A DNA stretch of 64,000 bases. Source: a virus. The translations under genes and the position numbers were made by a program. The stretch covers positions 1 to 64,000 of the IMG/VR virus record IMGVR_UViG_3300042197_004116, one strand, 5' to 3'. The notes below the pieces were generated by a model. That model saw nothing but the letters and a program-made list of their open reading frames with translations. It did not search any database and had not been told where the DNA came from. Shown here piece after piece: positions 36,701 to 63,837 of the stretch. Position 1 is the stretch's first letter. Each line of letters opens with the position of its first letter.

Positions 36701-37146
36701 ACGTCACTTTAATTGTCAATGCTGGTGTGGGTGTTGCTGGTTGCGGTGGATCACCTATTTCTTCAAGCTGTGGTGGTAATAGTGACAGGAGTCAAGGCGG
36801 TGGAGCCGGAGGAAATGCTATTAATTTGAGTTATCCTTTAAGTATTACTAATAACGGTATAATTGGTGGTGGAGGTTTCGGCGGTACATCATTTTGTTGG
36901 TGGGTAATGGGGTGTGTACCTCCTGGTAATACTTATGTTAATGGAAGTGGCAGTACAGGAGCAGGCATTAATGGTTTCTGGAATGGTTCTGGCGGTGGCC
37001 CTTCAGCACCTTCATATACTTTTGGATGCCATAATAAGACTGCTGGAGCCGGCGGAGCTCTTGGAACAAGTGGTGCAGCTATTAAAACAAACGGTAATAG
37101 TTATAGTGTAACAGGCAATTCTTTATTTGGTAGTGTAATACCTTAA
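33766..37146 (+). CDS. Multi-headed adhesin: gp38-like Gly-rich domain, RCC1/BLIP-II propeller, shared adaptor domain and a second gp38-like domain, joined by Pro-Thr stalks; start revised to ATG 33766
   Basis: [12 protein letters not shown] and [12 protein letters not shown] motifs; G.N..GQLG.G RCC1 repeats; TAATTA-N5-ATG at 33766 overlapping the upstream stop. Confidence 0.8.
35685..35930 (+). repeat. Pro-Thr coding tract
   Basis: Includes tandem TQTPFP units. Confidence 0.9.
36187..36525 (+). repeat. Pro-Thr coding tract with a 30-nt perfect tandem at 36373-36432
   Basis: acgcctactataacacctactccttctcct x2. Confidence 0.92.
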
Positions 37147-48776: not shown

Positions 48777-49346
48777 ATGGCAAGATTACCTAGTTCAGGA
48801 TCATTAAGTGTTTCACAAATAAACACTCTTAAAGCTTTAGGTACTGTGCAAACATCTCTTGATGATAGGGAAGCACAATATATGGGTGATTCTGGCCGAA
48901 CAGGAAATGCTAATGTCAACACATCGCAAGTATGTATGCCTAATGAAATCGTCAATGAAACAACCGGTGCATTAGCTAAAAATACGCTTGGCTGGACTTA
49001 TACAGGCCCTTCTGTTGCATGGAGACCAGTAAGAGTTAGTGAATTTTATCATGCTTATAACAGTTTACCTTCTCAGACAGTAACAAAACTTACAGCTTTT
49101 GTAAGTGCAACACAAGGTCAGATAAGAGTAGATTGCTCTGGAAGTGATGCAGGTGGTCCTTACTATATATACTACAGTGCTACAGGCATTCCAGGAGCAT
49201 GGTATACTGCTTCAGACATAGGCGGTGGCGTTTGGAGATATACCTTTACAGTCAATTCTGCAAACAATCCTCATGTATTCAGGGTAAGAGATTCTGAAAA
49301 TTGCGGTTCAAGCTTAGAAATCTCACAGTCCGTTAATTACCCTTAA
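48777..49346 (+). CDS. Small fibre-tip/associated protein
   Basis: TATAAATA-N6-ATG; MARLPSSGSLSVSQIN is typical of ORFs following S74 fibres. Confidence 0.6.
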   Translation: MARLPSSGSLSVSQINTLKALGTVQTSLDDREAQYMGDSGRTGNANVNTSQVCMPNEIVNETTGALAKNTLGWTYTGPSVAWRPVRVSEFYHAYNSLPSQTVTKLTAFVSATQGQIRVDCSGSDAGGPYYIYYSATGIPGAWYTASDIGGGVWRYTFTVNSANNPHVFRVRDSENCGSSLEISQSVNYP

Positions 49347-49382: not shown

Positions 49383-50702
49383 ATGATTGGTATTAAGAAA
49401 ACCGATAAAGAAATACAAGAATCTATTTTAGATAGAGCTATAGTATACTTAAAATACAGAGAAACTGATAGTTTTCTTTACTGTTCATTCTTTACTAGAA
49501 ACTTAGAAGTAATTAAGAAAGTATTTCCTGACCTTAATATATCATTTTCACAATATAAAAACGACAAAATAGATGCTGTTGATTTGAGAACTGGAGATCT
49601 AAGAACTTTAGAGACCAAAGAACTCTCTTTTGGTTATTTTCCAGAATTTCCTTTTGAACTATCCCCTGTATTTCTTTTCAATCCAAAATATACTGATAAA
49701 TTGTCTGCAAAAGATGTTATGTCTTTTCAAAAAAATACTATTACTCAATTAAAGAAATATAAAAATATAGCTTTAAAAATTAAAGATAGTAAAGAAAGAG
49801 AAGATTTAAATAAAATTATCTCACCTAAAGCATCTTTTCTTAAAACCATCTTACCAGGTTGTAGACTACTTGATGTAGCTCCATTAGATGCTTTTAAACA
49901 AGATAAAGTTTTAGTAAAGAAAGCATTTAAAAAATACCATGATGAACTTTTAAAGCATTATGATTATGTTATAGATGAAATTAATGCAGAAAAAAATGTC
50001 CTGTACAAAAAAATTAAAAGAGGGTGTAAATTTAGTAAAGATTCTCTTAATGAGGTGTTAGAGTTAGAGAAAAAAATTAATAAGGAGCGTATAAGCAGTG
50101 GTAAGTTAAAATTTACCTGTATATACGAAATGCTTAGTTACTGGCCTGAATCCTTAATTCCTGCTCCAGACTATATTATTACTGACCCTAGTGAAGAATG
50201 TAAAAAAATAATTGCTACAGTAAAATTAAGTGTACCTAGAGATGTATTAGTAGACTACTATAAAAATTTATGCACTGTCATTAGTGATTGGAGTACATAT
50301 GCTTTTACTTCTGAAAATAACCCGGAAGTATTTAAAAAAATTGTTGGTATAAAAGAAGAGGATGAATTCATACACTTTATAAGCATACCTACTTATAATA
50401 TATTACCTACAAGCTGTGATTTAAAGATTTTTCCAGGTAAGACTATTAAAACAAACGCTAATTTCATTCACTGCTATACATTTAAAAAAGACGAAGAGAA
50501 GGGCGATTATTATCTATTTTCTGATAATAATACTTCTATGACTAACCCAGATGCTATTAGATTAAAGAAAATAGATGATACCCATATTGAACTTATATTC
50601 AATCTTGATAATCAAGATACATTTAAAAGTAAGGGAACTAAACTTGAACCAATTACTAATACGCTTGAAATTTTAGATAATTTTATAAAAATAGCTGATT
50701 AA
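49383..50702 (+). CDS. Hypothetical protein (possible fibre-assembly or accessory factor)
   Basis: 439-aa intact ORF directly after the fibre genes; no diagnostic motif. Confidence 0.5.
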   Translation: MIGIKKTDKEIQESILDRAIVYLKYRETDSFLYCSFFTRNLEVIKKVFPDLNISFSQYKNDKIDAVDLRTGDLRTLETKELSFGYFPEFPFELSPVFLFNPKYTDKLSAKDVMSFQKNTITQLKKYKNIALKIKDSKEREDLNKIISPKASFLKTILPGCRLLDVAPLDAFKQDKVLVKKAFKKYHDELLKHYDYVIDEINAEKNVLYKKIKRGCKFSKDSLNEVLELEKKINKERISSGKLKFTCIYEMLSYWPESLIPAPDYIITDPSEECKKIIATVKLSVPRDVLVDYYKNLCTVISDWSTYAFTSENNPEVFKKIVGIKEEDEFIHFISIPTYNILPTSCDLKIFPGKTIKTNANFIHCYTFKKDEEKGDYYLFSDNNTSMTNPDAIRLKKIDDTHIELIFNLDNQDTFKSKGTKLEPITNTLEILDNFIKIAD

Positions 50703-51639
50703 ATCTTTTAACTATATCAGAAAAATTGTTTTCTTCTTTTCTAGTTTCACAATTTCTAAGAACACCAATAAAATAATCCCTATCTGTATAAATCCTGTAT
50801 AAAGACATTATAAACTCTTCTATATTATTTGCAGGCAGATAATCAAATTCACTCTTTTTATTAAGTATTAAGTTTTTGTCTTCGTTTAAGATTATTGGAA
50901 CACCAGATTTAAATGAAGAGAACAATCTGTTACAATGCTTAAAACCGGCTTGAGGTTGATCATAATTTCTAGAAAAAAAGAAGACATCTTCTTTACCTTG
51001 ATTGTGATTATATTTACTTTCTATGCTAAATTTAGATTCATCTATATGTTTTAAAAAAAGCTTTTTATTAATTATTTTTTTTGCAATATTAAATTTTTCA
51101 TTTGTAGTTGCTTTACAAAAGCTTAATAGCCACGGTGCTATATTTAACTCTAATGCGTTACAAAAAAACCTTCTAGGAGGAAAAACAGGATTACATTTCT
51201 TAAGACTTAAAGGCAAAGGCTCAGGAAAATAATTTATCTTTAAATTATACGTATAAAATCCGCCCAACCATGGAGTTGACTCCATAATTTCACCAGGCAA
51301 AGGCTTCTTTGCAATATCAAAACAAACAGACTTATCTGCAGATAAATACATATCACAATTAAAAATAGGTGGCTTATCACTTAAAATTTGTACTTTTTTA
51401 TAACTACCTAAGAAGTCTATTTTGTGTCTATTGTCAAAATGAAAAATTACTGTATCACTATCCTCTATATTAACAGGGAGTTTGGAAACTAGGCTTATAT
51501 TTTGTATGCCATTATTTTTAAGTATCCAATAAAGGTAAGACGAATGTACATCTTTTCCCTTAAAAGTTGACATGTCGTTATACAAGTCTGGAGAAAGAGC
51601 ATAGTTTTTTAAAGGCTGATTAGTTAAAAAATAAATCAT
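50683..51639 (-). CDS. Putative GT-B-fold glycosyltransferase; start revised to ATG 51639
   Basis: C-terminal FKHCNRLFSSFKSGVPIILNE resembles the GT4-type nucleotide-binding segment; ATGA overlap with the upstream stop. Confidence 0.45.
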   Translation of the reverse strand: MIYFLTNQPLKNYALSPDLYNDMSTFKGKDVHSSYLYWILKNNGIQNISLVSKLPVNIEDSDTVIFHFDNRHKIDFLGSYKKVQILSDKPPIFNCDMYLSADKSVCFDIAKKPLPGEIMESTPWLGGFYTYNLKINYFPEPLPLSLKKCNPVFPPRRFFCNALELNIAPWLLSFCKATTNEKFNIAKKIINKKLFLKHIDESKFSIESKYNHNQGKEDVFFFSRNYDQPQAGFKHCNRLFSSFKSGVPIILNEDKNLILNKKSEFDYLPANNIEEFIMSLYRIYTDRDYFIGVLRNCETRKEENNFSDIVKRFNQLFL

Positions 51640-52451
51640 TTTTGAAGTAAAAATTCTGACCAAACAACAGGAAGCTCAAAATTCTCTTGACCTGAGTGAG
51701 ACTTCCCATAATCAGTCATTATGTTGCTATCCTTATAATAGTTCTCACATCTTTCAAAATCAACATTTTGTCTTATTTTTTTATAGAAATGTTTTCTGTA
51801 ATTTATAAGGTTAGTTTTAGAATAAACTAAATTAAATTTTTTTCTAAATTTATTTTTTAATAGAGCATACGTTATAGGTGCAAAATAAAATAAACTATAC
51901 CACTTTAAATAGTTATCATTAATTTGTTTCTTATATTTTGATTCACAATTTAAATTTAAATCAAGTATGTAACATAAACCTCCAGGTTTTAAGATACGAT
52001 ATATTTCTTTTATTGTTTTTTCTTTATGAATAGAATGAGAAAAAGATTCAATAAAATATATTATATCAAAAAAGTTATTTTTGAAGTTCGTTTTATTGAA
52101 GTTTTGTAGAGTAATTTTTGCTCTATTAGAAACATTATATTTTTTTATATTTTTATCTGCTATATTTTTTTGAACATTGCTTAAAGTTACACCATGTATA
52201 AACAAATCTTTGTTCTTTTTTAGGAAAGCAAGAGATAGACTGAAATCACCACAACCAGCATCTAATATAGTAACAGCATCTTTGACAAAGATCTTTTTAT
52301 ACAGAATATCATCATGCTGTTTTAAAAAAGGTGAAAATCTAAATGACTCTACTCTTCTATAAGTGTCTATCCACGAAGAGGTAGATGTGTTATAATAATC
52401 TCTTATTTTCTCGTAATGTAATTTTTTTTCTTTAATTAATGATGTACCCAT
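51636..52451 (-). CDS. Class I SAM-dependent methyltransferase (sterol/tocopherol-MT-like)
   Basis: ILDAGCG, GVTLSNVQ, FDIIYFIESFSH, EIYRILKPGG. Confidence 0.9.
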   Translation of the reverse strand: MGTSLIKEKKLHYEKIRDYYNTSTSSWIDTYRRVESFRFSPFLKQHDDILYKKIFVKDAVTILDAGCGDFSLSLAFLKKNKDLFIHGVTLSNVQKNIADKNIKKYNVSNRAKITLQNFNKTNFKNNFFDIIYFIESFSHSIHKEKTIKEIYRILKPGGLCYILDLNLNCESKYKKQINDNYLKWYSLFYFAPITYALLKNKFRKKFNLVYSKTNLINYRKHFYKKIRQNVDFERCENYYKDSNIMTDYGKSHSGQENFELPVVWSEFLLQK

Positions 52452-52881
52452 ATCTATTATGAGGAGGTTCAGGTGAATCTTTTTTTACAAAAACAATATG
52501 TACAGGGTCATCATCTGTAATTTCATCTAAAGAGCTGCCTTCGTAAGAATTAAAATTAGAACTATTAATTAAATGAGTTGTTTCTGAATAAACTTTTTTT
52601 ACAATATTAGCCATATAAAACCCGCTTGTACCTGTGGGTGTTAATTCTAACGCTGTTGCACAATTATCAATTATTGAAACCAGGCGATTTTCAACTACAA
52701 ACGCTCTTAATGCTTTTTTTTGCTGCGGGGTAAAATTTAAAACTGTATTAGTGCCTATATATTCTTTTCCGTCATATCTTAAAGATAGCTTATTTCTAAT
52801 AGGCTCGTCATTCAATAAAAAATGTTTATGACTTACATACAAGTCGTTCTTTTCTAGAAAATCATCAGTAAATAAAAGCAT
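52432..52881 (-). CDS. Hypothetical late protein
   Basis: TAAGTA-N5-ATG; first gene of the leftward MT-GT unit. Confidence 0.55.
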   Translation of the reverse strand: MLLFTDDFLEKNDLYVSHKHFLLNDEPIRNKLSLRYDGKEYIGTNTVLNFTPQQKKALRAFVVENRLVSIIDNCATALELTPTGTSGFYMANIVKKVYSETTHLINSSNFNSYEGSSLDEITDDDPVHIVFVKKDSPEPPHNRYGYIIN

Positions 52882-52928
52882 ATATATACTTACATATAGA
52901 TTTTTAAATTCAATTTATTAAATTTTTA

Positions 52929-53612
52929 GTGTCAAGTATTTTAAGTGCTTTTTTAAAATCTGAACCCGATTTAGACTGGTTTATTTTTCAGAGTTGTCTG
53001 CCTTGGATTAGGCTTAATATCAAAATACCATTTGATAAAATGTACGAAGAAGCTAAGGCATTACTTTCTAACTTCATAGAATATCGGGAAACCAATAGTA
53101 AAGGGTGGAAATCAATCTGCATTCACGGTATATCTAGCTCTCATATATACGATTTTACATACTATGATGAGTATAAAGACATAGATCAAAATGCTGTACC
53201 ATATCGATGGACTGAGATTTCTAAAAAATGTCCAGTAACAACTAAGTTTTTAAAAAATAATTTTTTTAACGCCAAGTTTTTTAGAGTTAGATATATGGCA
53301 TTAGAACCAGGCGGGTATATTTTGCCGCATACAGATATGCCTAAGAAAATACTTGCCCCTATAAATATATCACTAAACAATCCAGATAATTGTGTTTTTA
53401 AAATGAAAAATTACGGCATAGTACCTTTTAAGGCAGGCGACGCATTTATACTTGACACTAGTAATGAACATGTAGTTTTTAATGATAGTAATGAAACAAG
53501 AATTCATATGATTGTTCATATTAACTATCCTATTTTAACTAAAATTAATCAAAAAAAATGGGCAAAATTATTATTCAATTCATGGAGAATTACGAATCAG
53601 CATAAAAGCTAA
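52929..53612 (+). CDS. Fe(II)/2OG oxygenase, Asp/Asn beta-hydroxylase family
   Basis: RVRYMALEPGGYILPHTD (HxD), DTSNEHVVFN, TRIHMIV. Confidence 0.88.
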   Translation: MSSILSAFLKSEPDLDWFIFQSCLPWIRLNIKIPFDKMYEEAKALLSNFIEYRETNSKGWKSICIHGISSSHIYDFTYYDEYKDIDQNAVPYRWTEISKKCPVTTKFLKNNFFNAKFFRVRYMALEPGGYILPHTDMPKKILAPINISLNNPDNCVFKMKNYGIVPFKAGDAFILDTSNEHVVFNDSNETRIHMIVHINYPILTKINQKKWAKLLFNSWRITNQHKS

Positions 53613-54144
53613 TACTAAAACTTATTTTATCTTTACTTGAAAAATTATAAACAGAATGCATTTTATTTAGAGGAAAAATTACATAATCACCTTTATTTTT
53701 AATTTCTTTATATTCATTATTTGATTCATAAAGACAGGCTCTATCCAGATCAAACAATAATAAATGAAAAATAACAAAACCATTCTTTTTGTGTAAATGT
53801 CTAGGAAAGTGACAATGCTTGTTGAGTTTACAAAACTGCGCAGAATTTATAGAAATATTTTTATTTTTAATTTCGTTTATAAGTGAAATAGTATTTTTAA
53901 AGTATTTAATTGAGTTATTTTCTACCTCTTTATTTACACCGCAGTAAATAGGCATAGATTTCCATTCTATCTTGCTTGAGCCTTTTGAACTAAAAACTGC
54001 TTCACGGTTTTTATTTTCTACATAAAAATATTTTTCTAACATTTTAAAATTATCTACATCTGTATATTCACTTATAATACTATCAATATTATTTTTAAAT
54101 AAGTTTAAAAATTTAAAATAATTTATCTCATAAAAATTTTTCAT
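53590..54144 (-). CDS. Asp/Asn-hydroxylase-like cupin with an HxH motif
   Basis: WKSMPIY, FPRHLH, IFHLLL, VIFPLNKMHSVYN. Confidence 0.7.
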   Translation of the reverse strand: MKNFYEINYFKFLNLFKNNIDSIISEYTDVDNFKMLEKYFYVENKNREAVFSSKGSSKIEWKSMPIYCGVNKEVENNSIKYFKNTISLINEIKNKNISINSAQFCKLNKHCHFPRHLHKKNGFVIFHLLLFDLDRACLYESNNEYKEIKNKGDYVIFPLNKMHSVYNFSSKDKISFSISFYADS

Positions 54145-54749
54145 ACATTTACTTCTACTCCAAAAGTAATTCTATCAGTAATAGATTTATTTTCAGCATA
54201 ATGGTATAAAAACGGATTAAAGATAACATAGTCTTTTACGTCTTTCATACCTTTTTTTTCGTAGTAGGAACAATAATCTTCAAAAGTATTGGGATCACCA
54301 TTATTACTTTCATCTAAGTATGTAAATGCCTTGCCATCAAACAAAGTAAACATATTAATATGTATAATAGCAGTTTTTGTACTATGTTTATGATAAGGAA
54401 TACTCTGATTTGATTTTAAACAAAAAAACCCAGAAAAATTTAAATTTTTTATTTTTTTTAATATATTATTAGTTTTAACAAACTCATTCTTAAAACAAAA
54501 TTTATCTTTGTACAAAGGTATTACAATCCAATTATTAGCATTTCCACCTTTCTTATAATAATCTTCATTATTTTTTTGCTGCTTAATCCACTCTACTGTT
54601 TTTTTGTGAGGTCTTATAAAATTATTATTCTTAGTAATAAAAGAATTGTTTTGTATAAAATTATTATATTCACATATTATTGTATCAAAACTATCTAAGA
54701 GAATTTTAAACTGAGGAAAGTCATCTAGTGCTTTAAACAAACGATTCAT
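54141..54749 (-). CDS. Asp/Asn-hydroxylase-like cupin with an HxH motif (paralog of the adjacent gene)
   Basis: WIVIPLY, IPYHKH, IIHINM, VIFNPFLYHYAEN, DRIT. Confidence 0.72.
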   Translation of the reverse strand: MNRLFKALDDFPQFKILLDSFDTIICEYNNFIQNNSFITKNNNFIRPHKKTVEWIKQQKNNEDYYKKGGNANNWIVIPLYKDKFCFKNEFVKTNNILKKIKNLNFSGFFCLKSNQSIPYHKHSTKTAIIHINMFTLFDGKAFTYLDESNNGDPNTFEDYCSYYEKKGMKDVKDYVIFNPFLYHYAENKSITDRITFGVEVNV

Positions 54750-55152
54750 TTTTGCTTGCCTCCTTTAGGCTTTTTTTCCAAAAAATTATAGCTTGTTTTA
54801 AGTTTTTTATTGTATTAATTCTAATAACACGTAATTTAACAAATTCTCCTTTTTTATATGCAGATTTTTCATCATCATGTTCTTTTGTAATAGTTGCGAC
54901 AGTATTAAACTCATTTTTTGTAATATCTTTAATTAAAGTTTTTGATTTAAAAACATCCTTGTCTTTGCATCTGCAGATTGTACTAACATAAATATATTTT
55001 TTATTTCTTTCCCACACATAATCAAAAACCTCCTTCTTTAAGCTTAGTTTATATGCTTTATTTTTAGTAAGAAATACAAAAAACAACTTATTACGTAAAT
55101 GCTCTCTACGTATTTTTTTTGATGTATTTTTAATATAAATCTTTAAAAACAT
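54733..55152 (-). CDS. Hypothetical basic protein; probable start ATG 55152
   Basis: Fills the gap in the leftward unit; no recognised motif. Confidence 0.4.
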   Translation of the reverse strand: MFLKIYIKNTSKKIRREHLRNKLFFVFLTKNKAYKLSLKKEVFDYVWERNKKYIYVSTICRCKDKDVFKSKTLIKDITKNEFNTVATITKEHDDEKSAYKKGEFVKLRVIRINTIKNLKQAIIFWKKSLKEASKNESFV

Positions 55153-55897
55153 AATTACTTTGCTTAGCAAAAGGTTTGCCTTTAAACAAAAAATCATCTC
55201 CTGTATAATACAATATATTTTTCTTATTCATTTTATAAATACTCAATTCATTTTTATTCGTTCTTTTATAAAGAAGAAAAGGGGCTTCTTTTTCAATCAA
55301 AGCAACCCCTACAGCATATCTTTCTTTATTTGATGTTTCTGCTGTATCTGAACCATGAATCATCCTACTATGATACATAACTGCATCGCCTTTTTCTAAA
55401 TCATTTAGGTAAACTTTATTATCAAATTTCTCCTCAAATTTAAAAGGAAAAGGAATATTAACACCTCTTATATAATTTTTATATTTTAAATACGAACTTT
55501 CAACAACATAAAGCGAGTTATGATTTTTTTCTATTGTATGAAGAGGGAACCATAATGTATATGTATTATATCTCAATTCATCAGTAAAAGCAGGGTCTTG
55601 GTGCTGTATACTCATACTATTAGGACCTGGTATTTTTTTTATATAACTTATCAAAACTACTTTATAATTAGGTAACTTATCTTCAATATGCTTTCTTAAA
55701 ATACTATCAAGCTCTTTATAAATTGTTTTTTTCCATTCTATATTTCTCACATATGTAGAGCTCAAAAAATTTGAATTTTTAAAAAAAGGAGAGTCATTAA
55801 AGAGCTCTCTTTTAAGAGTTCTATCTACAAGCGATTTTACTGATGTAATTTGATCAATATTAAAAAAATTTCTTAGTACTGTATAGCCTTTATCCAC
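55130..55897 (-). CDS. PhyH-family Fe(II)/2OG dioxygenase
   Basis: GYTVLRNFF, QHQD, TLWFPL, LYVVESS, GDAVMYHSRMIHGS; TAAATA-N6-GTG. Confidence 0.88.
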   Translation of the reverse strand: MDKGYTVLRNFFNIDQITSVKSLVDRTLKRELFNDSPFFKNSNFLSSTYVRNIEWKKTIYKELDSILRKHIEDKLPNYKVVLISYIKKIPGPNSMSIQHQDPAFTDELRYNTYTLWFPLHTIEKNHNSLYVVESSYLKYKNYIRGVNIPFPFKFEEKFDNKVYLNDLEKGDAVMYHSRMIHGSDTAETSNKERYAVGVALIEKEAPFLLYKRTNKNELSIYKMNKKNILYYTGDDFLFKGKPFAKQSNYVFKDLY

Positions 55898-55903
55898 ATT
55901 AAA

Positions 55904-55953
55904 TATTTAGAATATTTTACTTATTTGCAACTATACAGAAAAACTATTAAATA
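55904..55953. promoter_or_regulatory. Back-to-back late promoters driving the PhyH unit (minus strand) and the methyltransferase (plus strand)
   Basis: Minus-strand TAAATA at 55904-09 (6 nt to GTG) and plus-strand TAAATA at 55948-53 (5 nt to ATG). Confidence 0.7.
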
Positions 55954-55958
55954 AGAAT

Positions 55959-56741
55959 ATGTTTCTGGAAAAACATTTTTATACTCTTAATAATTTTTAT
56001 AGAAAATTTACTTTTTGGTATTATAAACAAAATAAGTCTACCAACTTCAGAATAGAAAGTTTCATGCCTTTTAGAACATACAGTAAAATTAATAAATTTA
56101 TAATACAAGCTTCTAAACTTACCAACAATGAAAACTATACTTTTGCAGATTTTGGTTGCGGTTTAGGCATGCCAACAAAAGAAATTTCAAAAAAATTCAG
56201 TAAAAATAAATTTATTTTTGTTAATATTAATAAAGAGCAAATCAACTTTATTAAAAAAACTAAAAATACCTATCTTTTAAATGAAGACTATCATAATACT
56301 TCTATAAGTTCTAATAGTGTAGATACAATACTGTTTTACGAATCGTTTTGCCATTCATACGATAAAAAATTAGCATTAAATGAATGTTATAGAGTTTTAA
56401 AAAGGAATGGTAGGCTCATAATTATAGATTATCTTCATCACGATTCTGCAACTAAAGAACAAATAAACTCATACGTAAAAACAATGTCTATGTACCTAAT
56501 TACTAAAAAACAAATGGAAACTTTAATAAATAAAAAGAAATTTAAAAAAATTATTTTTGATACAAATATTAATAATTATTTTAAATTAAAAAATAGTAAA
56601 TATGACGACAACTATATATACTACAAAAATAAAAAAAACAATTCTTTGGTTCTTTCGGATTTTGGTGAAATGATTAAAGACGTTGCACTGACTCAAGCCT
56701 TTATAGCTTTACCGTCAATTATAGTATTGGAAAAAATTTGA
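55959..56741 (+). CDS. Class I SAM-dependent methyltransferase (paralog of 51636-52451)
   Basis: ADFGCGLG, FYESFCH, ECYRVLKRNG; shares R[IV]ESF with its paralog. Confidence 0.88.
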   Translation: MFLEKHFYTLNNFYRKFTFWYYKQNKSTNFRIESFMPFRTYSKINKFIIQASKLTNNENYTFADFGCGLGMPTKEISKKFSKNKFIFVNINKEQINFIKKTKNTYLLNEDYHNTSISSNSVDTILFYESFCHSYDKKLALNECYRVLKRNGRLIIIDYLHHDSATKEQINSYVKTMSMYLITKKQMETLINKKKFKKIIFDTNINNYFKLKNSKYDDNYIYYKNKKNNSLVLSDFGEMIKDVALTQAFIALPSIIVLEKI

Positions 56742-57385
56742 TCTATTTCATTTTTGGTAAGCTTCCATGTTTTTGTATTTGAATAATAATAGCTAGTGGT
56801 TTTGAGATTTTTATCTTTTCCAAAGGAAATTAAATTAAAATTTTTAAATTTAAAAGGAGATAAATTTTTTAAATAATTAAAACATGTAATAACAGCTATC
56901 TTTTCATAGCTTACAGTTCTATTGTTTCTTATTCCTCTACCTCTGCATATCTCAATTCCCGATACTGGCAAATGTATGTTGTATTCCTTTTTTAGTTTCT
57001 TTATATAGTTTTTATTCTTTGTGTACTTATATGTTCTTTTGTTATCTTCTTCAAACGCAATTAACTTGTAATCTTCATAGCTCAAACCCTTCTTTATGTT
57101 TTTTACATTATAGTAGTATGCCAAAAAACATTTTTTGTTTATTATTTTTATAGCAATACCGGGTAGCCTCGTACCTATATCAGTCTTTTTTTTAAAAAAA
57201 GGTATATAATTAATATTCTTGTTAAGAAATTTTTTTACTATACTTAAAAAAATATCTTCTTTAAAAGTGAAATAGAGTTTTAAAGATGTTATTTTATTAT
57301 CACAAATATTTAAACCAAAAAAACTATGACATGAAAGAGGATTTATTGTATAAGCTATTTTTTTAGCCTTTTTTATAGACATCAT
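56693..57385 (-). CDS. Hypothetical protein, possible ABBA/PT-barrel prenyltransferase-like fold
   Basis: Five predicted beta-hairpins such as FFGLNICDNKITSLKLYF; paralog of 58467-59279; fold assigned by pattern only. Confidence 0.4.
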   Translation of the reverse strand: MMSIKKAKKIAYTINPLSCHSFFGLNICDNKITSLKLYFTFKEDIFLSIVKKFLNKNINYIPFFKKKTDIGTRLPGIAIKIINKKCFLAYYYNVKNIKKGLSYEDYKLIAFEEDNKRTYKYTKNKNYIKKLKKEYNIHLPVSGIEICRGRGIRNNRTVSYEKIAVITCFNYLKNLSPFKFKNFNLISFGKDKNLKTTSYYYSNTKTWKLTKNEIDQIFSNTIIDGKAIKA

Positions 57386-58458
57386 AATATTTCTTTACCA
57401 CTCATTTTGTTCTTATAAAAAATAATTTCATTTATTAATTCTCTATATTTTTTAATATTAGTTTTCTGAGTTTCTGTTGGATTTAAAAGTAGAAACTTTT
57501 TTATTGACATTGCAGTGTAAATTTCATCTATTTCTTCTTTTTTAAGAGCACTTAAAGCCATACTTTCAGGAAACATTAGTTTATGAAAATAAACATTTGC
57601 GTTAATACTGTTAGCAAGGGTTATAATTTTATGAAGGTCTCGAATATTGCTTCCCATCACAACTGTGCTTATTGTTAGTCTTTTTTTCTTAGCTTGTAGA
57701 ATATCGCTTATCTTTTTAAGATTCTCGCAAACCCTATCAAAATTAGCATTAACTCTTATTTTTTCAAATAATTCTTTTGTACCTGCATCAATACTAACAC
57801 CTACATCTATATCTAATTCTTTTAAATAACTTTCAATTCTACTATTATATACCGTACCATTTGTTTGCAGATAAAAATTAATTTTTAATTTATTTTCTTT
57901 ACAATAGTCTAAAATCTTAAAATATCCTTTTATTAAAAACGGCTCTCCACCATAAAAATCTACTCTTTTAACATAAGGTAGTATGCTAAACAATTCTTCA
58001 TAAAACTTATCATCGTAGGGTGAAATATATTTAGGAAGCTTTTCTCTATTTTTTCTAATTGATGAAGAATGTTTACCATTACACATTACACATTCCAGAT
58101 TACAAATATTATCAAGCTCTAAATCCAACCTAATAGGATATTTTAGGGTTTTTGTAGTTCCTTTATAATCATAAAAAGGAATTTTAAGAGTTTCAAAATT
58201 ACCACACTTTAAATTATGGCTACAATGGCCGCAACCAACATTAAACTTCATTTGCCTCATTTCCTCTCTCATTTTCTTTAATGGCTCACCATTCCATATT
58301 TCCATTATAGTCTGCTCAGGGTATGACCCTAATTTATAAAATCTATTAGCACAACACACAAAAAACTCTCCTTTTTGACCCATATAAAGGCTATTAAATG
58401 GAGCGCTACAAAGCATACCCTTCTTTTGTCTGTTTTTAAGGAAATCTACTTCCGTCAC
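57382..58458 (-). CDS. Radical SAM enzyme with an N-terminal SPASM/twitch domain
   Basis: CSAPF...VCC...IWNG...CGHC followed by CNLECVMC (CxxxCxxC), FYGGEPFL, QTNG, VSIDA. Confidence 0.92.
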   Translation of the reverse strand: MTEVDFLKNRQKKGMLCSAPFNSLYMGQKGEFFVCCANRFYKLGSYPEQTIMEIWNGEPLKKMREEMRQMKFNVGCGHCSHNLKCGNFETLKIPFYDYKGTTKTLKYPIRLDLELDNICNLECVMCNGKHSSSIRKNREKLPKYISPYDDKFYEELFSILPYVKRVDFYGGEPFLIKGYFKILDYCKENKLKINFYLQTNGTVYNSRIESYLKELDIDVGVSIDAGTKELFEKIRVNANFDRVCENLKKISDILQAKKKRLTISTVVMGSNIRDLHKIITLANSINANVYFHKLMFPESMALSALKKEEIDEIYTAMSIKKFLLLNPTETQKTNIKKYRELINEIIFYKNKMSGKEIL

Positions 58459-58466
58459 AGATGTAT

Positions 58467-59279
58467 TTACTTTAATAAAGAGTATGAATCTACAACACCC
58501 TTTTTTAGAAGGCTATTAACATTAGAAGGATAGAAATAAAGAGACACTATATTGTCACTGGTATATAATCCCATATTTCTTACATAAAATCCTTTTTTGG
58601 TAAAAAAGCTAATCTTCTCTATTAAACTAAATTTTTTTAAATACTTTATTATTTTTTTCTTGTCTGTTCCTATGAAAATAACTTTCAATGGAATGCCATC
58701 TACTTCTGTATATTCAATTTTTTCAGACTTCAAAGGTATATCAGTTTCAAACACCTTACTAAAATATTTTTTCGCTGGTTCTGATGTTAAAAATCTATAA
58801 CATTTATGCTTTGTTTTATTTTTAGTGGATTCATAACAAACCCCTATTTGATCAGATTTACTTAAGAACTCATCTTGTATATTTTTAACCATGTGTTTAC
58901 GAATAAAAATGCTCTTATAATATCGTCTTGTAGCAATAAAATGAAACTGATAAGTAAATTTTTTTCTTTCCAAATCATACTTTAACGCAAAGGTAACACC
59001 TCTTTTGCACTCATTTTTTTCAAAATTTATAAGCTTGTAATTTTTCATCAGAAGATGGGGAGATGGGAAAAACTTTTTAATTTCTTCTCTTGTCAGCTTT
59101 CTAACCGTATTAAAGTAGAACTTAATAGTTTTTATAATTCCGTTTTTCCTTATATTAATAGAAAAAATATTACCTAAAGGATACTGGCTACCGCAATTTA
59201 GAGCCTTATAATTTTTGTAATATTCAGCAAATTCTTTACTTTTTATAAAAGTTGAAAAGCAGTTTTCTAGAGGTATCAT
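58467..59279 (-). CDS. Hypothetical protein, possible ABBA/PT-barrel prenyltransferase-like fold
   Basis: Five predicted beta-hairpins separated by helices, from IFSINIRKNGIIKTIKFYF to NMGLYTSDNIVSLYFY. Confidence 0.4.
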   Translation of the reverse strand: MIPLENCFSTFIKSKEFAEYYKNYKALNCGSQYPLGNIFSINIRKNGIIKTIKFYFNTVRKLTREEIKKFFPSPHLLMKNYKLINFEKNECKRGVTFALKYDLERKKFTYQFHFIATRRYYKSIFIRKHMVKNIQDEFLSKSDQIGVCYESTKNKTKHKCYRFLTSEPAKKYFSKVFETDIPLKSEKIEYTEVDGIPLKVIFIGTDKKKIIKYLKKFSLIEKISFFTKKGFYVRNMGLYTSDNIVSLYFYPSNVNSLLKKGVVDSYSLLK

Positions 59280-59287
59280 ATTGATAG

Positions 59288-60085
59288 ATGAATAATTGTA
59301 TAGCTTATATTGTAAATAGCAAATACTTGCCTTTATTTAAATTAAGTATCTTTTCATTAATAAGATCTAACCCTAGACTTAATATAGACATTAACTTATT
59401 TATATCTGATAACATAAAAAGTGAGATAAAAAGCTTTCTTAAAAAACTTAAAATTAAAGCTAAGATTCACCAAATAAACAATAAAAAATATGAAAAGTAT
59501 TCTTTTATTTCCAGAAGAAATTGGGATCTGTCACCTGCAACGAGATTAGAATTGTTTACTTTATACAAATATTCAAAAGTACTTTATCTAGATTGTGATA
59601 CATTAGTTTTAAAAGACATAAAAGAGTTGTTTGAATTAAAAGACAAAAACATTTATGCATGTAGGCTTCATCCTATCACTAACAGCTCTTATTTTGGCTC
59701 TCAGTTCAACGGGTTTAACGCAGGGGTAATATTATTTACTAAACCGTTTTTGTCAAAAAAATATAGTTCTAAAGTAAGCAAACTTCTAGCCAATTCAAAA
59801 TTTAGCGGTAACCAAGAAGCATTAAATCTTGTATTCAATGATAATACAGTTCTAATAGACCAAAAATACAACCTCACACTAGACTTAGCCACTTTAAGCA
59901 ACTTAAAGGAAGCTGTTATTATTCATTATATTGGTGAAAAGTATTTTACAATTGATAGCAATATAATACAAATACAAAATTTTAGTGACTATATAAAGAA
60001 AACAACTCACCCTTTAGTATTGACCAAGTTTAAAACAATAGTTAATGACATTAGCTTAGAGCTTAATAAATTTTTAAATGTGTAG
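59288..60085 (+). CDS. Glycosyltransferase family 8
   Basis: KVLYLDCDTLV (DxD), FNAGVIL, NQEALNLVF, IIHYIG. Confidence 0.9.
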   Translation: MNNCIAYIVNSKYLPLFKLSIFSLIRSNPRLNIDINLFISDNIKSEIKSFLKKLKIKAKIHQINNKKYEKYSFISRRNWDLSPATRLELFTLYKYSKVLYLDCDTLVLKDIKELFELKDKNIYACRLHPITNSSYFGSQFNGFNAGVILFTKPFLSKKYSSKVSKLLANSKFSGNQEALNLVFNDNTVLIDQKYNLTLDLATLSNLKEAVIIHYIGEKYFTIDSNIIQIQNFSDYIKKTTHPLVLTKFKTIVNDISLELNKFLNV

Positions 60086-61364
60086 TTTTTATTTTACCAA
60101 TAAATCATGTAGTAAAAAACTCCTCAAGAGTCAAAACTATTTTAGCTCTAAAAGAGGGCCAGATAATACAACTATTATAACTGACAATAATTTATCCATT
60201 GTTCATAATTTACTATCTATAACAGGAAGTCCCACAAAGCAACCATTAATAGAAAATAATTTGTATGTTATGTTTAACGGTGAGATTTACAATTATAATA
60301 AAGGCAGATTTAAATCTGATATCTATTTTATTTTACACCTTTATAAAAAGTATGGTGAACAGTTTGTTGATTATTTAGATGGTGAATATGCAATAGTAAT
60401 CTACGATAAAAATAAAAACTCTGTAATTTTCTGTACGGATATTTTTATGACTAAGCCGTTATTTTATTCTATTGAAAATGGAATTATTTCAATCAGTTCT
60501 TACAAAAGCTCCTTTGACAATGTAAATGAAATAATTCAAGCTCTACCCAGTACTTTATATAAATTTAATATTACTACTAAATCTCTAAAAGAAAAAACAT
60601 ATTTTAAATTTAATACTAAACAATTCAAGAATAACTACAGTGATTTTGAATCAGCATTAAAAAAATCTATTTTAAAAAGAACTAAAACTAATAAAAAACT
60701 ATTTATAGGATTAAGCAGTGGTTATGATAGCGGAGTACTAGCATGTATTTTAAATAAGCTTAAAATAAATTACAATGCATATACTATTTTAAGCAAAGAA
60801 AACATTGAAATTTTACACCAAAGAGAAAAATTAGTCAACAACTATACGCTTATAAAGCCTGATTTTAAGAAGCTAACATACGCTAAATTAAAAATTATAC
60901 AAAACTGTGAGCCAAGTAAAAACGCGTCTTTTGATTATGCTTCTGACCACGCTTCATCAGGTTTATATTTGATAGCAGAGAAAGGATTAAAAAATAATTG
61001 TAAAGTGTTTCTATCTGGTACTGGAGCAGATGAAATTTTTAGTGACTATGGATTTAATGGAACAAAAATATTTTCAAACAGTAACTTTGGCGGGCTTTTT
61101 CCTAAAGATCTATCAACAATTTTTCCCTGGAAGAATTTTTATAACGGTTGTTTAAGAAACTATATAGATAAAGAAGAATATGTCTTGGGTGGTTTAGGTA
61201 TAGAAGCAAGATACCCGTTTCTCGATAAAGATGTAGTTCAAGAATTTCTAAATCTCTCTCCTAAATTAAAAAACAACAATTACAAAGCCCCTCTTTACCA
61301 CATTCTTAAAAAATATAATTTTCCCTTTGAAGAAAATATTAAACGCGGATTTAGCTTTATTTGA
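60078..61364 (+). CDS. asnB: Asparagine synthetase-like glutamine amidotransferase
   Basis: N-terminal nucleophile Cys2, RGPD, FNGEIYN, LSSGYDSG, LSGTGADE, RYPFLD. Confidence 0.9.
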   Translation: MCSFYFTNKSCSKKLLKSQNYFSSKRGPDNTTIITDNNLSIVHNLLSITGSPTKQPLIENNLYVMFNGEIYNYNKGRFKSDIYFILHLYKKYGEQFVDYLDGEYAIVIYDKNKNSVIFCTDIFMTKPLFYSIENGIISISSYKSSFDNVNEIIQALPSTLYKFNITTKSLKEKTYFKFNTKQFKNNYSDFESALKKSILKRTKTNKKLFIGLSSGYDSGVLACILNKLKINYNAYTILSKENIEILHQREKLVNNYTLIKPDFKKLTYAKLKIIQNCEPSKNASFDYASDHASSGLYLIAEKGLKNNCKVFLSGTGADEIFSDYGFNGTKIFSNSNFGGLFPKDLSTIFPWKNFYNGCLRNYIDKEEYVLGGLGIEARYPFLDKDVVQEFLNLSPKLKNNNYKAPLYHILKKYNFPFEENIKRGFSFI

Positions 61365-61551
61365 ACCCGTGCCTTATTCTATCTATAAAATAAGCCTTTA
61401 ACTCACTTACATTACAAGACTTACAGCTGTTCATTTTTTGTAAAAAATTCAGTTTTTCTAAGTATTCATTTCTCAAACTGCTACAATTTTTTATTTCCTC
61501 TGGACAAGGAGAGCTTAAATCAAAGAAAATTTCCAATAGATTAGAAGTCAT
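61357..61551 (-). CDS. 4-Cys mini-protein (PCP-x4-C...CxxC)
   Basis: Clear paralog of 63344-63523; coupled to the upstream PhyH gene. Confidence 0.7.
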   Translation of the reverse strand: MTSNLLEIFFDLSSPCPEEIKNCSSLRNEYLEKLNFLQKMNSCKSCNVSELKAYFIDRIRHGFK

Positions 61552-62374
61552 GCTTTAATAGAGCTAAATACTTGTTATACCCTCTTAATAGTTTTTCAGA
61601 AACAATGCTCGATTCACCATTAAATTTATGCTTAACCTCAGGATTATAATTTAAAATAACTTCTGTATCTACATTGTATTTTTTAACCTTATCGTCCTCC
61701 TTAACATATATTACAAAATTTTTATTTTTAGGAATTATGCCCAGTCCTATTGATATACGTGTATTGTGTGTCTCAGGAGTTGAATAAGAGCCATGTATTA
61801 CTCTTGGGTTCATTACCAAGACATCACCTGCTTTTAGGGGACAAACAAACTTAGCATTTTTAAGCAGTTTGTCTTTAAAATTATTAAGCCCAAGAGTAAC
61901 CCCTACTCCTCTTATGAAATTTTTAAAAATTTTATGGGTCCCTGGTATAATATATAAAGGTCCAGATTTCTCATCAATATCATCCAATGCAAACCACACA
62001 GTATAAGATGAAACTGAAGAAGTTTCCTCTATTAATGATATGTCTTGATGGACCTTACATTCATTCTCTCCACCAGGGTACTTTATAATATAGTTGCCAA
62101 TTACAATTTTATAATTTTTAAAAACTTTATCTATTTTTGGTTGAAGCAAACCATATAAAAAACTATAAACCGATTTTTTATACTCAATATTTTTACTCAT
62201 CGCAGTATTAACGTGGTTTATGTTTTTGTCTCTATATATGTTAAATCCAGCAGTATCATTAAAATCATTATAAAACTGTTTTAGTGAAGATAAATCATCT
62301 TTACTCAACAGTTGATTTAAAACAACATAGCCTTTATCTTTTAAATGCTTATTAAGATTAATATCCTTGATCAT
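61541..62374 (-). CDS. PhyH-family Fe(II)/2OG dioxygenase (paralog of 55130-55897)
   Basis: GYVVL, VHQD, TVWFALDD, PGTH, GDVLVMNPRVIHGS; shares KN[YF]IRGV with its paralog. Confidence 0.9.
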   Translation of the reverse strand: MIKDINLNKHLKDKGYVVLNQLLSKDDLSSLKQFYNDFNDTAGFNIYRDKNINHVNTAMSKNIEYKKSVYSFLYGLLQPKIDKVFKNYKIVIGNYIIKYPGGENECKVHQDISLIEETSSVSSYTVWFALDDIDEKSGPLYIIPGTHKIFKNFIRGVGVTLGLNNFKDKLLKNAKFVCPLKAGDVLVMNPRVIHGSYSTPETHNTRISIGLGIIPKNKNFVIYVKEDDKVKKYNVDTEVILNYNPEVKHKFNGESSIVSEKLLRGYNKYLALLKHDF

Positions 62375-63119
62375 ATTGAGTCTTATTTTAATTAATTATA
62401 ACTTGACCGCCATTTCTCAAACTAGTTTTTTTCCTAAAAAAGACATTTTAAAATTTGTAAAATACTACAAATATGTAATTTTGTTTAATTCAGAAAGAAT
62501 ATTTTTGAAAGATAAAATATCTTTTGACCATTTTATAGGGCCTTGTTCAGGCTTTAAACCGTTCTTGGTTTCAGAACTTTATAATACTAACCCTAAATGT
62601 AAAATAACTTTTTTTGATTTTAATCAGTCACAAATTTATTTTTATAAAGCTTTGCTTAAGTGGAATGGGAAGAACTTTCAAAAATTTGTAGATGGTTTTT
62701 TTACAAAAAACAAAGAAATACTAAACAAGGTTATTGTAAACAATTTACCTCGTGAATATTTAGACAGAAAAATGAAAGAGATATTATCTAATTTTAAAGA
62801 TGAAAAATCCTTTATTGAGTCATGGAATAAATTTAGAAAAAAAGATATTAATTTTGTTTTTATAAACGCTATTACTGATTATAAGAACATTATACCCCTT
62901 ATAGATAAAAACTCAGTTTCTTATCTTTGGTTAAGCAATATATACAATTTTGAAATATCTAACCACCGTTATGGTAAAGAAAAGTGCCTATCTGCACTTA
63001 AAAAATTATTAACAAGGCTTGTAAATAAAAATATATATATAGATTTAGAAACTGAAAACAAAAGCGGGGTTTTTAGTCCAAAATGTGCTCTAAAGCAAAT
63101 TTTTAATCTTGATAAATAA
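62367..63119 (+). CDS. Hypothetical protein (start uncertain, possibly TTG 62403)
   Basis: Intact ORF; GPCSG...ITFFDFN...YLWLSNI could be a degenerate Rossmann/SAM-binding fold. Confidence 0.45.
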   Translation: MIILSLILINYNLTAISQTSFFPKKDILKFVKYYKYVILFNSERIFLKDKISFDHFIGPCSGFKPFLVSELYNTNPKCKITFFDFNQSQIYFYKALLKWNGKNFQKFVDGFFTKNKEILNKVIVNNLPREYLDRKMKEILSNFKDEKSFIESWNKFRKKDINFVFINAITDYKNIIPLIDKNSVSYLWLSNIYNFEISNHRYGKEKCLSALKKLLTRLVNKNIYIDLETENKSGVFSPKCALKQIFNLDK

Positions 63120-63142
63120 AAACAATAGGTTAATATATTTTT

Positions 63143-63343
63143 GTGTATATAGAAAAGTTTACAGCTCATGTTAGAGATTTGACTTCTAAAAAGTCTTTTA
63201 AGATTGTTTTAGATGAAAATGACCCTCAAGAGGCACATAAAAAGATCTATAACAAACTTAACAATTATCAAGAAATTGTTAAACTCACTAATCATGATAA
63301 TGAAGTTGTTTATAATATTGACTCCGGTTTTATAAATAATTAA
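63143..63343 (+). CDS. Small hypothetical protein
   Basis: 66-aa ORF with GTG start; TTGATA...TAATAT sigma70-like elements upstream. Confidence 0.5.
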   Translation: MYIEKFTAHVRDLTSKKSFKIVLDENDPQEAHKKIYNKLNNYQEIVKLTNHDNEVVYNIDSGFINN

Positions 63344-63523
63344 ATGATATCTGAATTTTTTGAATTAGAAAAACCTTGCCCAAACGAGATTAAAGACTGT
63401 GAACAGTGGAGAGAACAATACAAAAAGGATTTGGCAGAATTAAATCCAAGAGTTTGTAAACCATGTGCTTTAAACAGCTTAAAAGCAAAATATATAAATA
63501 TTTTTGCCTCTCAAGGTAAATGA
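63344..63523 (+). CDS. 4-Cys mini-protein, 59 aa (missing from the ORF track)
   Basis: Manual translation MISEFFELEKPCPNEIKDCEQWREQYKKDLAELNPRVCKPCALNSLKAKYINIFASQGK; TATAAATA (63331-38)-N5-ATG; ATGA overlap with the next gene. Confidence 0.8.
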   Translation: MISEFFELEKPCPNEIKDCEQWREQYKKDLAELNPRVCKPCALNSLKAKYINIFASQGK

Positions 63524-63837
63524 TAGATTTATTTTACTCTTATATAACTGCCCAGGCCTTTATATTATTCTGGTTTTATTCACCCCTTAAAACTTCCTTA
63601 TATAAACTATTAACAGGTAAATTTAGTCTTAACAATGAAGATTTTGATACATACCTACTTTGCAAAAGTACTCTTTTTAAAGTTTTTACTTGTACGTTTT
63701 GTTTAGGTTTTTGGACAAGTCTAATTACCAGTTTATATTTTAATTCAGGTTTTGAACCTATTATAGTAAGCTGGGCCTTTTCTATTACTTTCTTATATTT
63801 GTTTGAAAATTTTTTAAATTTCATAAAAAGGAGTTGA
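63520..63837 (+). CDS. Small membrane protein with CxxC (DUF1360-like)
   Basis: About three hydrophobic segments; FTCTFCLGFW motif. Confidence 0.65.
   Translation: MIDLFYSYITAQAFILFWFYSPLKTSLYKLLTGKFSLNNEDFDTYLLCKSTLFKVFTCTFCLGFWTSLITSLYFNSGFEPIIVSWAFSITFLYLFENFLNFIKRS

Follow-up and report, generated by a model that had tools for sequence, protein, structure and literature searches.

The 64-kb window analysed here is the first part of the 75,463-bp IMG/VR virus record IMGVR_UViG_3300042197_004116. At 49383-63119, between distal tail-fibre genes and a conserved block of backbone genes, it carries an accessory, hypervariable island of enzyme genes that is led by an open reading frame (ORF) for a protein of 189 amino acids (aa) at 48777. 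The island is of the type of the host recognition cluster (HRC), the hypervariable block of pelagimyophages and cyanomyophages. Tentatively, it may build and edit a decoration that contains sugar and is probably linked to a prenyl or isoprenoid group. We infer that this product is a glycoconjugate, and likewise its destination. A possible acceptor, though far from a certain one, is a phage-made protein of the fibre tip or virion region, which would carry the decoration as an optional, strain-variable trait. An earlier note on this DNA had proposed a late-expressed system that decorates the virion proteins encoded next door. This interpretation is supported in part, namely for a coherent, selected enzyme module that is physically tied to the fibre genes.

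The window encodes a T4-type terminase, sheath, clamp loader, baseplate wedge and tail fibres according to family searches, which identifies a T4-like phage. The C-terminal part of the sheath is 33-39% identical to sheaths of cyanophages and pelagiphages. By sequence, the phage is far from any cultured phage: the island and fibre region gave no match in a nucleotide search against 50,697 phage records, and neither cupin 1 nor the protein encoded at 56693-57385 was matched in cultured phages by tblastn. The DNA runs that contain sequence of the window are freshwater and lake metagenomes. The island has a G+C content of approx. 27-30%. Three relatives were used as larger genome records, namely G001 (121 kb, full island), G002 (identical with L102, 54 kb) and G004 (identical with L103).

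Orthologs of nearly every island gene were found in the relatives L005 and L090 with 26-71% amino-acid identity, in the same slot and in shuffled order. L005 and L090 have no nucleotide similarity to each other. The contigs with the full set (3300016471_000949 and 3300016472_000940, which are one phage, and Ga0164294_10000038) represent two diverged phages. In the full-set relatives, the slot begins with the fibre C-terminus, followed by the 189-aa ORF, the 439-aa ORF, the enzymes and a PD-(D/E)XK gene. About 17 genes were thus kept together despite divergence and rearrangement, which argues for a single selected pathway, and we regard the island as one selected module.

The ORF for the 189-aa protein was found in all five island-bearing relatives (L005, L090, L093, L094 and L105), while searches of L102, L106 and L119, which have no island, did not detect it. 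Together with the island, the 189-aa and 439-aa proteins adjoin the fibre in five relatives. The C-terminal ~100 aa of the fibre encoded at 47025-48767 are the only fibre part common to all island-bearing relatives (tblastn: L005, L090 and L093). The earlier note had placed the island at 49383-63837, directly after the last fibre gene. Its position on the fibre side was confirmed, with the 189-aa ORF intervening, and its extent holds up to 63119; the genes at 63143-63837 belong to the backbone and are present in relatives without the enzymes.

The closest backbone relative, L102, has a PD-(D/E)XK protein that is 75% identical. There, the fibre gene is directly followed by the 66-aa ORF, an ORF with four conserved cysteines (Cys4 ORF) and the membrane ORF, and neither GT8, nor the N-terminal twitch radical S-adenosylmethionine (SAM) enzyme N_Twi_rSAM, nor the island was found in its 54 kb. 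In L093, the slot contains two GT8 genes, one each for GT2, GT31 and GT32, two N_Twi_rSAM genes and a gene similar to that at 58467. L103 has five to eight N_Twi_rSAM paralogs in addition to GT8 and AsnB, L100 has AsnB, two GT8 and an epimerase, and L131 has two GT8. Judged from these gene contents, the island is accessory and its slot hypervariable.

An isoprenoid link is suggested by the ABBA (PT-barrel) fold of the 230-aa protein encoded at 56693-57385 and by the UbiA genes beside bacterial N_Twi_rSAM genes. The AlphaFold2 (AF2) model of the 230-aa protein consists of five β-hairpins and flanking helices that form a ten-strand antiparallel barrel of α-β-β-α repeats. Its top matches in Foldseek were all aromatic prenyltransferases. 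A VIA comparison gave Z 12.7 to KgpF with 187 aa aligned, and the 123 chains with Z of at least 8 were all prenyltransferases. On the ABBA prenyltransferases KgpF, LimF, PagF and a DMATS-type enzyme (8ye0, 7vmy, 5tu6, 6zs0), 185-196 residues could be aligned with Z values of 11-12.7; compared with such peptide and indole prenyltransferases, however, the phage protein is ~60-120 aa shorter and only 5-13% identical. The PT-barrel proposed for this gene was thus borne out at the level of the fold. No match was obtained in Pfam (E ≤ 5; PTase_Orf2, DMATS-type and DUF5838) or among PDB sequences, and the only pointer from sequence was a language-model lead with a score of 0.86-0.89. The family is phage-restricted with three representatives among 1.8 billion proteins, and BFVD contained only three or four weak ABBA-like viral models. 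No paper on DUF5838 was found. The conserved residues K36, Y38, K80, Y119, Y121, K123, R153, K162, K190 and Y200 are located on strands of the model and are compatible with, but no proof of, the predicted binding and transfer of a prenyl diphosphate. A second PT-barrel had been proposed for the 270-aa protein at 58467-59279, which is possibly a distant paralog. Its hhalign alignment with the ABBA family was colinear over 186 columns with a probability of 4% and a pairwise E of 0.0096, BLASTP gave E 0.056, and the language-model atlas contained nothing for it.

The adjacent gene encodes the N_Twi_rSAM enzyme. Pfam SPASM matched at residues 17-79 and Radical_SAM at 117-281. The cysteines of the cluster (C119/C123/C126) and of the twitch (C17/C35/C76/C79) are all invariant in an alignment of 19 sequences. 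The earlier assignment to the SPASM/twitch class was correct, with the domain lying N-terminal to the CxxxCxxC core. Since both sugars (BtrN) and peptides are substrates of known twitch-class enzymes, the class leaves the substrate undecided. More than 1000 homologs of N_Twi_rSAM exist; those of bacteria come almost entirely from Bacteroidota. N-twitch radical SAM genes (26% identity) also occur in KVP40-like Vibrio phages and in some Campylobacter phages, among hypothetical genes near ribonucleotide reductase and far from fibres; no other island gene and no fibre linkage were found in the KVP40-like phages. The locus used here was that of Vibrio phage K566 (169043-187876, L088).

At 45 Bacteroidota loci with full flanks, the neighbours of N_Twi_rSAM were a 393-aa protein without known function (26 loci), UbiA (23), AsnB (17), GDSL (15), a methyltransferase (11) and PhyH (9). 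An operon of a Chitinophagaceae metagenome-assembled genome (L041) has the order PhyH, methyltransferase, UbiA, AsnB, an unassigned gene and radical SAM, and contains no glycosyltransferase. Five activities are common to these clusters and the island, namely PhyH, a UbiE/CMAS-like methyltransferase, a prenyltransferase, AsnB and N_Twi_rSAM. The prenyltransferase is the membrane protein UbiA in the bacteria, whereas the phage has the soluble ABBA-fold protein. At their C-termini, the radical SAM proteins of the bacteria extend 90-170 aa further; GDSL and the 393-aa protein are common there and absent from the island, while cupins and GT8 are not typical of the bacterial clusters. A literature search for the cluster of UbiA, radical SAM and AsnB found nothing. 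The cluster is widespread and apparently uncharacterised (L041:2044-10522 and 44 further Bacteroidota loci, L006-L083) and often has tandem N_Twi_rSAM paralogs; L028 has approx. seven PhyH paralogs in a row.

A sugar-containing product is indicated by the GT8 of the island, by the glycosyltransferase-rich variants of the slot, by the context of the closest AsnB from a cultured phage and by a weak match of PhyH a to TIGR04324, the 'sporadic carbohydrate cluster 2OG-Fe(II) oxygenase'. The DxD motif of GT8 is present as D-C-D in LYLDCDTLV. The AsnB protein has the nucleophile Cys2 (N-terminus MCSF) and an SSGYDS PP-loop, around which G211-L-S-S-G-Y-D-S-G is invariant with the ortholog. It scored 157 bits against TIGR01536 with its cut-off of 267; the equivalog score was not reached, and the protein is assigned by its sequence to the AsnB-family amidotransferases and not to the asparagine synthase equivalog. 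Its closest homolog in a cultured phage is that of Synechococcus phage S-SCSM1 (MK867354) with 44% identity over the full length.

Gene content was checked by searches of Pfam, NCBIfam, PHROGs and PDB sequences, and paralogy by BLASTP (Table 1). Of the genes listed in the earlier note, GT8, the AsnB-type enzyme, two methyltransferases, three cupins, two PhyH proteins, the radical SAM enzyme and one PT-barrel were retained; the second PT-barrel remained unproven, and a probable GT-B found no support. The latter, encoded at 50683-51663, had no GT-B family match; Pfam (even when searched at E 5), NCBIfam and the PDB sequences contained nothing similar at all. Paralogs occur in the island: cupin 3 is one of cupin 2 (31% identity, E 2.5e-5), the two methyltransferases are paralogous (E 1e-8), and so are PhyH a and PhyH b (E 2e-34). 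PhyH b is the extra copy; L005 and L090 have a single PhyH. In cupin 1, H134-x-D136 and later His residues are conserved in the alignment with a 68% identical ortholog. The 439-aa protein had an N-terminal match in L105 (E 2.6e-6) and a weak match to Maf_flag10_N (E 0.039), and its AF2 model was unusable with a predicted local distance difference test score (pLDDT) of 43. A word-indexed search for homologs of 58467 and 49383 gave near-identical copies only. The search of PDB sequences with 58467, 50683 and 62367 gave nothing meaningful. No PHROG family was found for nine of ten queried island and backbone proteins, the exception being the radical SAM enzyme. No ortholog of 52432-52881 was detected by tblastn in L005 or L090. 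The real start of 62367-63119 is probably downstream of the listed TTG, as the orthologs align from residue 28. No clear transmembrane segment was seen in the island enzymes, and Pfam searches of the island found no genes for a carrier lipid, flippase or export.

Table 1. Features of the island and its flanks. Positions refer to the window; pTM, predicted template modelling score.
Feature	Position	Strand	Evidence or remark
Distal tail-fibre gene (context)	47025..48767	+	PHROG tail-fibre families, best E 2.5e-34
189-aa protein, no family match	48777..49346	+	TATAAATA 14 nt upstream of ATG; travels with the island
439-aa protein, first island gene	49383..50702	+	After the 189-aa ORF in relatives; orthologs in L005 and L090 at 33% identity
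326-aa protein (earlier "probable GT-B")	50683..51663	-	One PHROG without function; 40% identity in L005 and L090
Class-I SAM methyltransferase 1 (UbiE/CMAS-like)	51636..52451	-	Methyltransf_11 4.6e-14; NCBIfam UbiE-type 4e-11, under cut-off
149-aa protein, head of three-gene minus-strand unit	52432..52881	-	No family matches
TAAGTA late-type motif	52887..52892	-	11 nt before ATG at 52881
Cupin 1, Asp/Asn β-hydroxylase family	52929..53612	+	PF05118, 6.2e-16, 59.1 bits
Cupin 2	53590..54144	-	PF05118, 8.9e-9, 35.8 bits
Cupin 3	54141..54749	-	PF05118, 4.6e-3, 17.3 bits, below cut-off of 22.6
154-aa basic protein, no family match	54733..55197	-	Conserved in L005 and L090 at 30-39% identity (tblastn)
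PhyH dioxygenase b	55130..55897	-	PF05721, 4.2e-7
TAAATA late-type motif	55904..55909	-	12 nt before GTG at 55897
TAAATA late-type motif	55948..55953	+	11 nt before ATG at 55959
Class-I SAM methyltransferase 2	55959..56741	+	Methyltransf_11 6.3e-15
230-aa ABBA (PT-barrel) fold protein	56693..57385	-	AF2 pLDDT 80.6, pTM 0.80 (four-sequence alignment)
Radical SAM enzyme, N-terminal twitch (N_Twi_rSAM)	57382..58458	-	NF033640 183.7 bits, cut-off 170, E 6e-54
TAAATA late-type motif	58464..58469	-	11 nt before GTG at 58458; absent from the list of the earlier note
270-aa protein	58467..59279	-	Orthologs in L005, L090 and L093
GT8 glycosyltransferase	59288..60085	+	PF01501 1.2e-24, 87.8 bits, threshold 24.3
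Glutamine-dependent AsnB-type amidotransferase	60078..61364	+	GATase_7 2.9e-17, Asn_synthase 2.4e-15
PhyH dioxygenase a	61541..62374	-	PF05721, 7.3e-19
250-aa protein, last island gene	62367..63119	+	Homolog adjoins a cupin in L086
Conserved backbone block: 66-aa ORF, 59-aa Cys4 ORF, 105-aa membrane ORF	63143..63837	+	Occurs in enzyme-less relatives

In the proposed pathway, the ~17 soluble enzymes would together make one decoration. GT8 would transfer a sugar and AsnB would amidate a carboxylate with glutamine as nitrogen source, accompanied by up to five Fe-dependent hydroxylations and two or three methylations. The N-terminal-twitch radical SAM enzyme and one or two PT-barrel proteins would carry out one joint step. 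A more specific version is doubtful: a strain-variable, prenylated or isoprenoid-derived decoration that is then hydroxylated, methylated, amidated and glycosylated and is attached in the cytoplasm to the 189-aa or another fibre-tip protein, with a radical SAM/PT-barrel chemistry that is undescribed. If true, the phage would have its own counterpart to an O-antigen locus, displayed on the virion, and the same new chemistry would operate in the widespread Bacteroidota clusters of N_Twi_rSAM, UbiA and AsnB.

Late timing had been claimed for the island because of the motif TAA[AG]TA, which we take to resemble the core of T4-type late promoters. It peaks sharply 11-13 nt before the start codon and was found there in 22 of 51 genes compared to ~1% of all ATGs. 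Most of the 17 (out of 31) upstream genes with the motif are structural; within 49383-63837, five of 20 genes have it, four at the heads of units and one internally, and it also precedes an M15 peptidase gene beyond the window. All sites named before (at 52881, 55897, 55959 and 63344) are present, and the lack of the motif at dut/gp44 was reproduced. The site before 63344 belongs to the backbone. For roughly half of this phage's island genes, late timing is plausible; at the orthologous unit heads in L005 and L090 the motif is mostly absent.

Several divergent gene pairs (59279/59288, 16282/16299, 62367-62374 and 14272/14287 in L090) have start codons that are 8-16 nt apart or overlap, so that their promoters must lie within the neighbouring coding sequence. 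Several such spacers in relatives, and the one at dut, read ATAATAT or TATAAT. Operon-internal genes have ribosome-binding sites of the GGAGG type (upstream of 54141, 45022, 47025 and 16760); genes with TAA[AG]TA have no room for such a site. The phage may thus start translation in two different ways, and its host would be one that uses Shine-Dalgarno sites.

As probable substrates, the earlier note had named Pro-Thr stalks, Ser/Thr motifs and Trp/Cys loops of the neighbouring virion proteins, or a glycan built on them; these named substrates found no support. Pro-Thr tracts of up to ~140 aa do occur in four fibre-module proteins (20704-26397, 33748-37146, 37157-38401 and 45022-46368), and similar tracts in L093, L094 and L102. 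The expected co-occurrence of stalks and island failed in both directions, however. G001, with the full island, has no Pro-Thr tract in its 121 kb and no homologs of the large fibre proteins of the window; G002 has a Pro-Thr-stalk homolog of ORF 45022 and the distal fibre without the island. Thus, the island cannot be a dedicated maturation system for Pro-Thr stalks.

The proposal of chemistry as in RiPPs, peptides that ribosomes synthesise and that are modified after translation, also lost ground to the sugar and isoprenoid reading. No precursor gene that co-occurs with the modifying enzymes, as in a RiPP cluster, was found, and the statement that no standalone precursor peptide is apparent was upheld. 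The sole candidate, the Cys4 ORF (63344-63523), was ruled out as part of the island. Its family was found in 42 viral contigs (L100-L141), with the 105-aa membrane ORF in 27, GT8 in seven and N_Twi_rSAM in four; it mostly accompanies the membrane ORF and the PD-(D/E)XK gene and seldom the enzymes. The RiPP reading is weaker because this candidate is a backbone gene, because the slot in relatives contains up to five glycosyltransferases, because the closest AsnB of a cultured phage is located in a cluster for GDP-sugars and glycosyltransferases, and because bacterial N_Twi_rSAM accompanies genes for UbiA, AsnB, GDSL and epimerase.

A virion protein stays a reasonable acceptor given the soluble enzymes without carrier-lipid or export functions, the late-type signal, the place beside the fibres with the companion 189-aa and 439-aa proteins, and the precedent of mycobacteriophages. 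Several observations weigh against a virion decoration of this kind. Besides the dissociation from the stalks in G001 and G002 and the scarcity of the motif in L005 and L090, homologous fibres occur without the island in G002, no RNA runs that contain sequence of the window are listed, and seven island proteins have no assigned function. GT8 enzymes are best known from lipopolysaccharide (LPS) cores. The AsnB relative of S-SCSM1 is found among metabolic genes and not beside fibres. Published readings favour modification of the host O-chain (PMC7029224) or decoration of the capsule or a secondary metabolite (PMC7824862).

The first rival explanation, which we consider rather unlikely, is that LPS, capsule or a glycolipid of the infected cell is altered and the adsorption of competing phages blocked. 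It would agree with the weak match of the island GT8 to LPS 3-α-galactosyltransferase in NCBIfam, with the bacterial N_Twi_rSAM neighbourhoods containing membrane UbiA, GDSL/SGNH, AsnB, epimerase and capsule-type glycosyltransferases, with the cell-wall-type cluster around the S-SCSM1 AsnB and with hypervariable slot contents that resemble O-antigen loci, and such clusters are read in this way in the literature (PMC7029224, PMC7824862, PMC12801897). However, all island enzymes are soluble, and no membrane protein, ligase or carrier-lipid transferase was found; with regard to an O-antigen module of the Gtr or Wzx/Wzy type, no Pfam family of a membrane flippase, bactoprenol transferase or polymerase is present in the island. 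The phage has a soluble ABBA-fold protein where the bacteria use membrane UbiA, the late-type signal before about half of the genes suits superinfection exclusion poorly, and the island is fixed beside fibre genes.

An unlikely alternative is that the product stays free, as a secondary metabolite or peptide that bears prenyl, hydroxyl, methyl and amide groups and possibly a sugar, and is released or acts intracellularly. The combination of an ABBA prenyltransferase fold, a radical SAM enzyme of the SPASM/twitch class, several dioxygenases and methyltransferases is typical of natural-product pathways. The methyltransferases have UbiE/UbiG/CMAS types as their closest matches, and the parallel Bacteroidota operon manages without a glycosyltransferase. 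For a cyanophage cluster of cupin, 2-oxoglutarate (2OG) oxygenase and methyltransferase genes, a secondary metabolite was proposed by Iyer et al. (2021, PMC7824862). The missing precursor peptide argues against a peptide product, and no protease, transporter or scaffold-forming enzyme (nonribosomal peptide synthetase, polyketide synthase or terpene synthase) is present. In addition, AsnB retains the glutaminase Cys2, unlike lasso cyclases, and relatives replace enzymes by glycosyltransferases.

Hypermodification of DNA, in which the enzymes would decorate hydroxymethylated bases of the phage genome, is very improbable. The contig has genes for dCMP deaminase and dUTPase, and, according to PMC12619734, which cites Pyle 2024, some phages have glycosyltransferases that decorate DNA with diverse glycans. 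Yet no gene of the thymidylate-synthase/hydroxymethylase family was found in the 75 kb of this phage or the 121 kb of G001, both incomplete records, and no base-kinase or DNA-glycosylase-like genes are present; the late-type signal and the fibre-side position are opposite to the early DNA glucosyltransferases of T4. Equally hard to credit is the view that unrelated auxiliary genes, sharing no pathway, accumulated by chance in a gap that tolerates recombination, which would fit a hypervariable slot that can be empty and the 2OG/PhyH genes scattered in aquatic T4-like phages, with an Asp/Asn β-hydroxylase core to pelagimyophages (PMC7029224), but not nearly the same 17 genes in three phages despite reshuffling, nor five enzyme families that recur together around N_Twi_rSAM in Bacteroidota.

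Islands of this kind have already been published (Zaragoza-Solas et al. 2020, PMC7029224; Iyer et al. 2021, PMC7824862). The HRC of pelagimyophages and cyanomyophages, with VrlC and gp14 as its landmark genes, contains fibres, GT8-rich LPS genes and radical SAM cassettes; its region under-recruits metagenome reads, it was read at annotation level as modifying the host O-chain, and a freshwater group lacks LPS and radical SAM genes (PMC7029224). The likeness consists in a hypervariable block on the fibre side with GT8 and radical SAM genes and a content that differs between relatives. A PT-barrel, an N-twitch radical SAM assignment and AsnB, all three present in the island, are not reported in that paper. 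The cyanophage LPS/capsule clusters and the second, 'sugar- and amino-acid-modification' cluster of Iyer et al. (PMC7824862, section 3.4.10) comprise epimerases, glycosyltransferases, 2OG oxygenases, cupin-fold hydroxylases and methyltransferases, with capsule decoration or a secondary metabolite proposed as product. Further genes there encode carbamoyltransferases, a halogenase, sugar kinases and nucleotidyltransferases, and no link to fibres is described, while the island has radical SAM, PT-barrel and AsnB proteins.

In S-SCSM1, AsnB is likewise located beside glycosyltransferases and methyltransferases, but at sequence level only AsnB is common to this cluster and the island. The cluster has genes for GDP-sugar (GDP-fucose) synthesis and approx. 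nine glycosyltransferases and is embedded among photosynthesis and metabolic genes. Mycobacteriophage glycosyltransferases encoded near structural genes decorate virion proteins (Freeman et al. 2023, as cited in PMC12619734 and PMC12801897). As described in these citing papers, one or two glycosyltransferases act there on C-termini of capsid and tail-tube proteins, without a set of oxygenase, radical SAM and PT-barrel proteins. New are the assignment of a PT-barrel at fold level, the link of a radical SAM family to prenyltransferases across two unrelated folds, the conserved 17-gene set and its two-way dissociation from Pro-Thr stalks.

Many aquatic T4-like phages carry enzyme islands that are linked to fibre genes. 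If virions are decorated, host range, evasion of immunity and defence, and particle stability would depend on a hidden, fast-changing chemistry; if the host surface is remodelled, the islands would be a lytic-phage form of serotype conversion. The 17-gene set is small enough to be expressed, and the pairing of a soluble PT-barrel protein with a radical SAM family that is itself uncharacterised offers a testable handle. The same chemistry could be studied in culture with the parallel Bacteroidota operon.

Some observations concern the surroundings of the island. The Cys4 protein of the backbone block (59 aa) is conserved over its whole length with four invariant cysteines (C12, C19, C38 and C41), its gene, of which L090 has two copies, follows a TATAAATA-type motif at 63333-63338, and it looks like a small zinc-binding late protein. 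Just past the window, at 64249-65082 of the contig (L003:2250-3083), a GalE-like NAD epimerase is encoded inside the backbone block of small ORFs. Weak matches to it were obtained in L100 and L102, and no counterpart was detected in L005, L090 and L093. At the end of the contig (L003:11124-13463), a large ORF on the minus strand, which contains a YadA-head repeat and matches GDSL weakly, adjoins a 2OG-Fe_Oxy_2 gene. Fibre-like and tailoring genes may thus also exist beyond the island.

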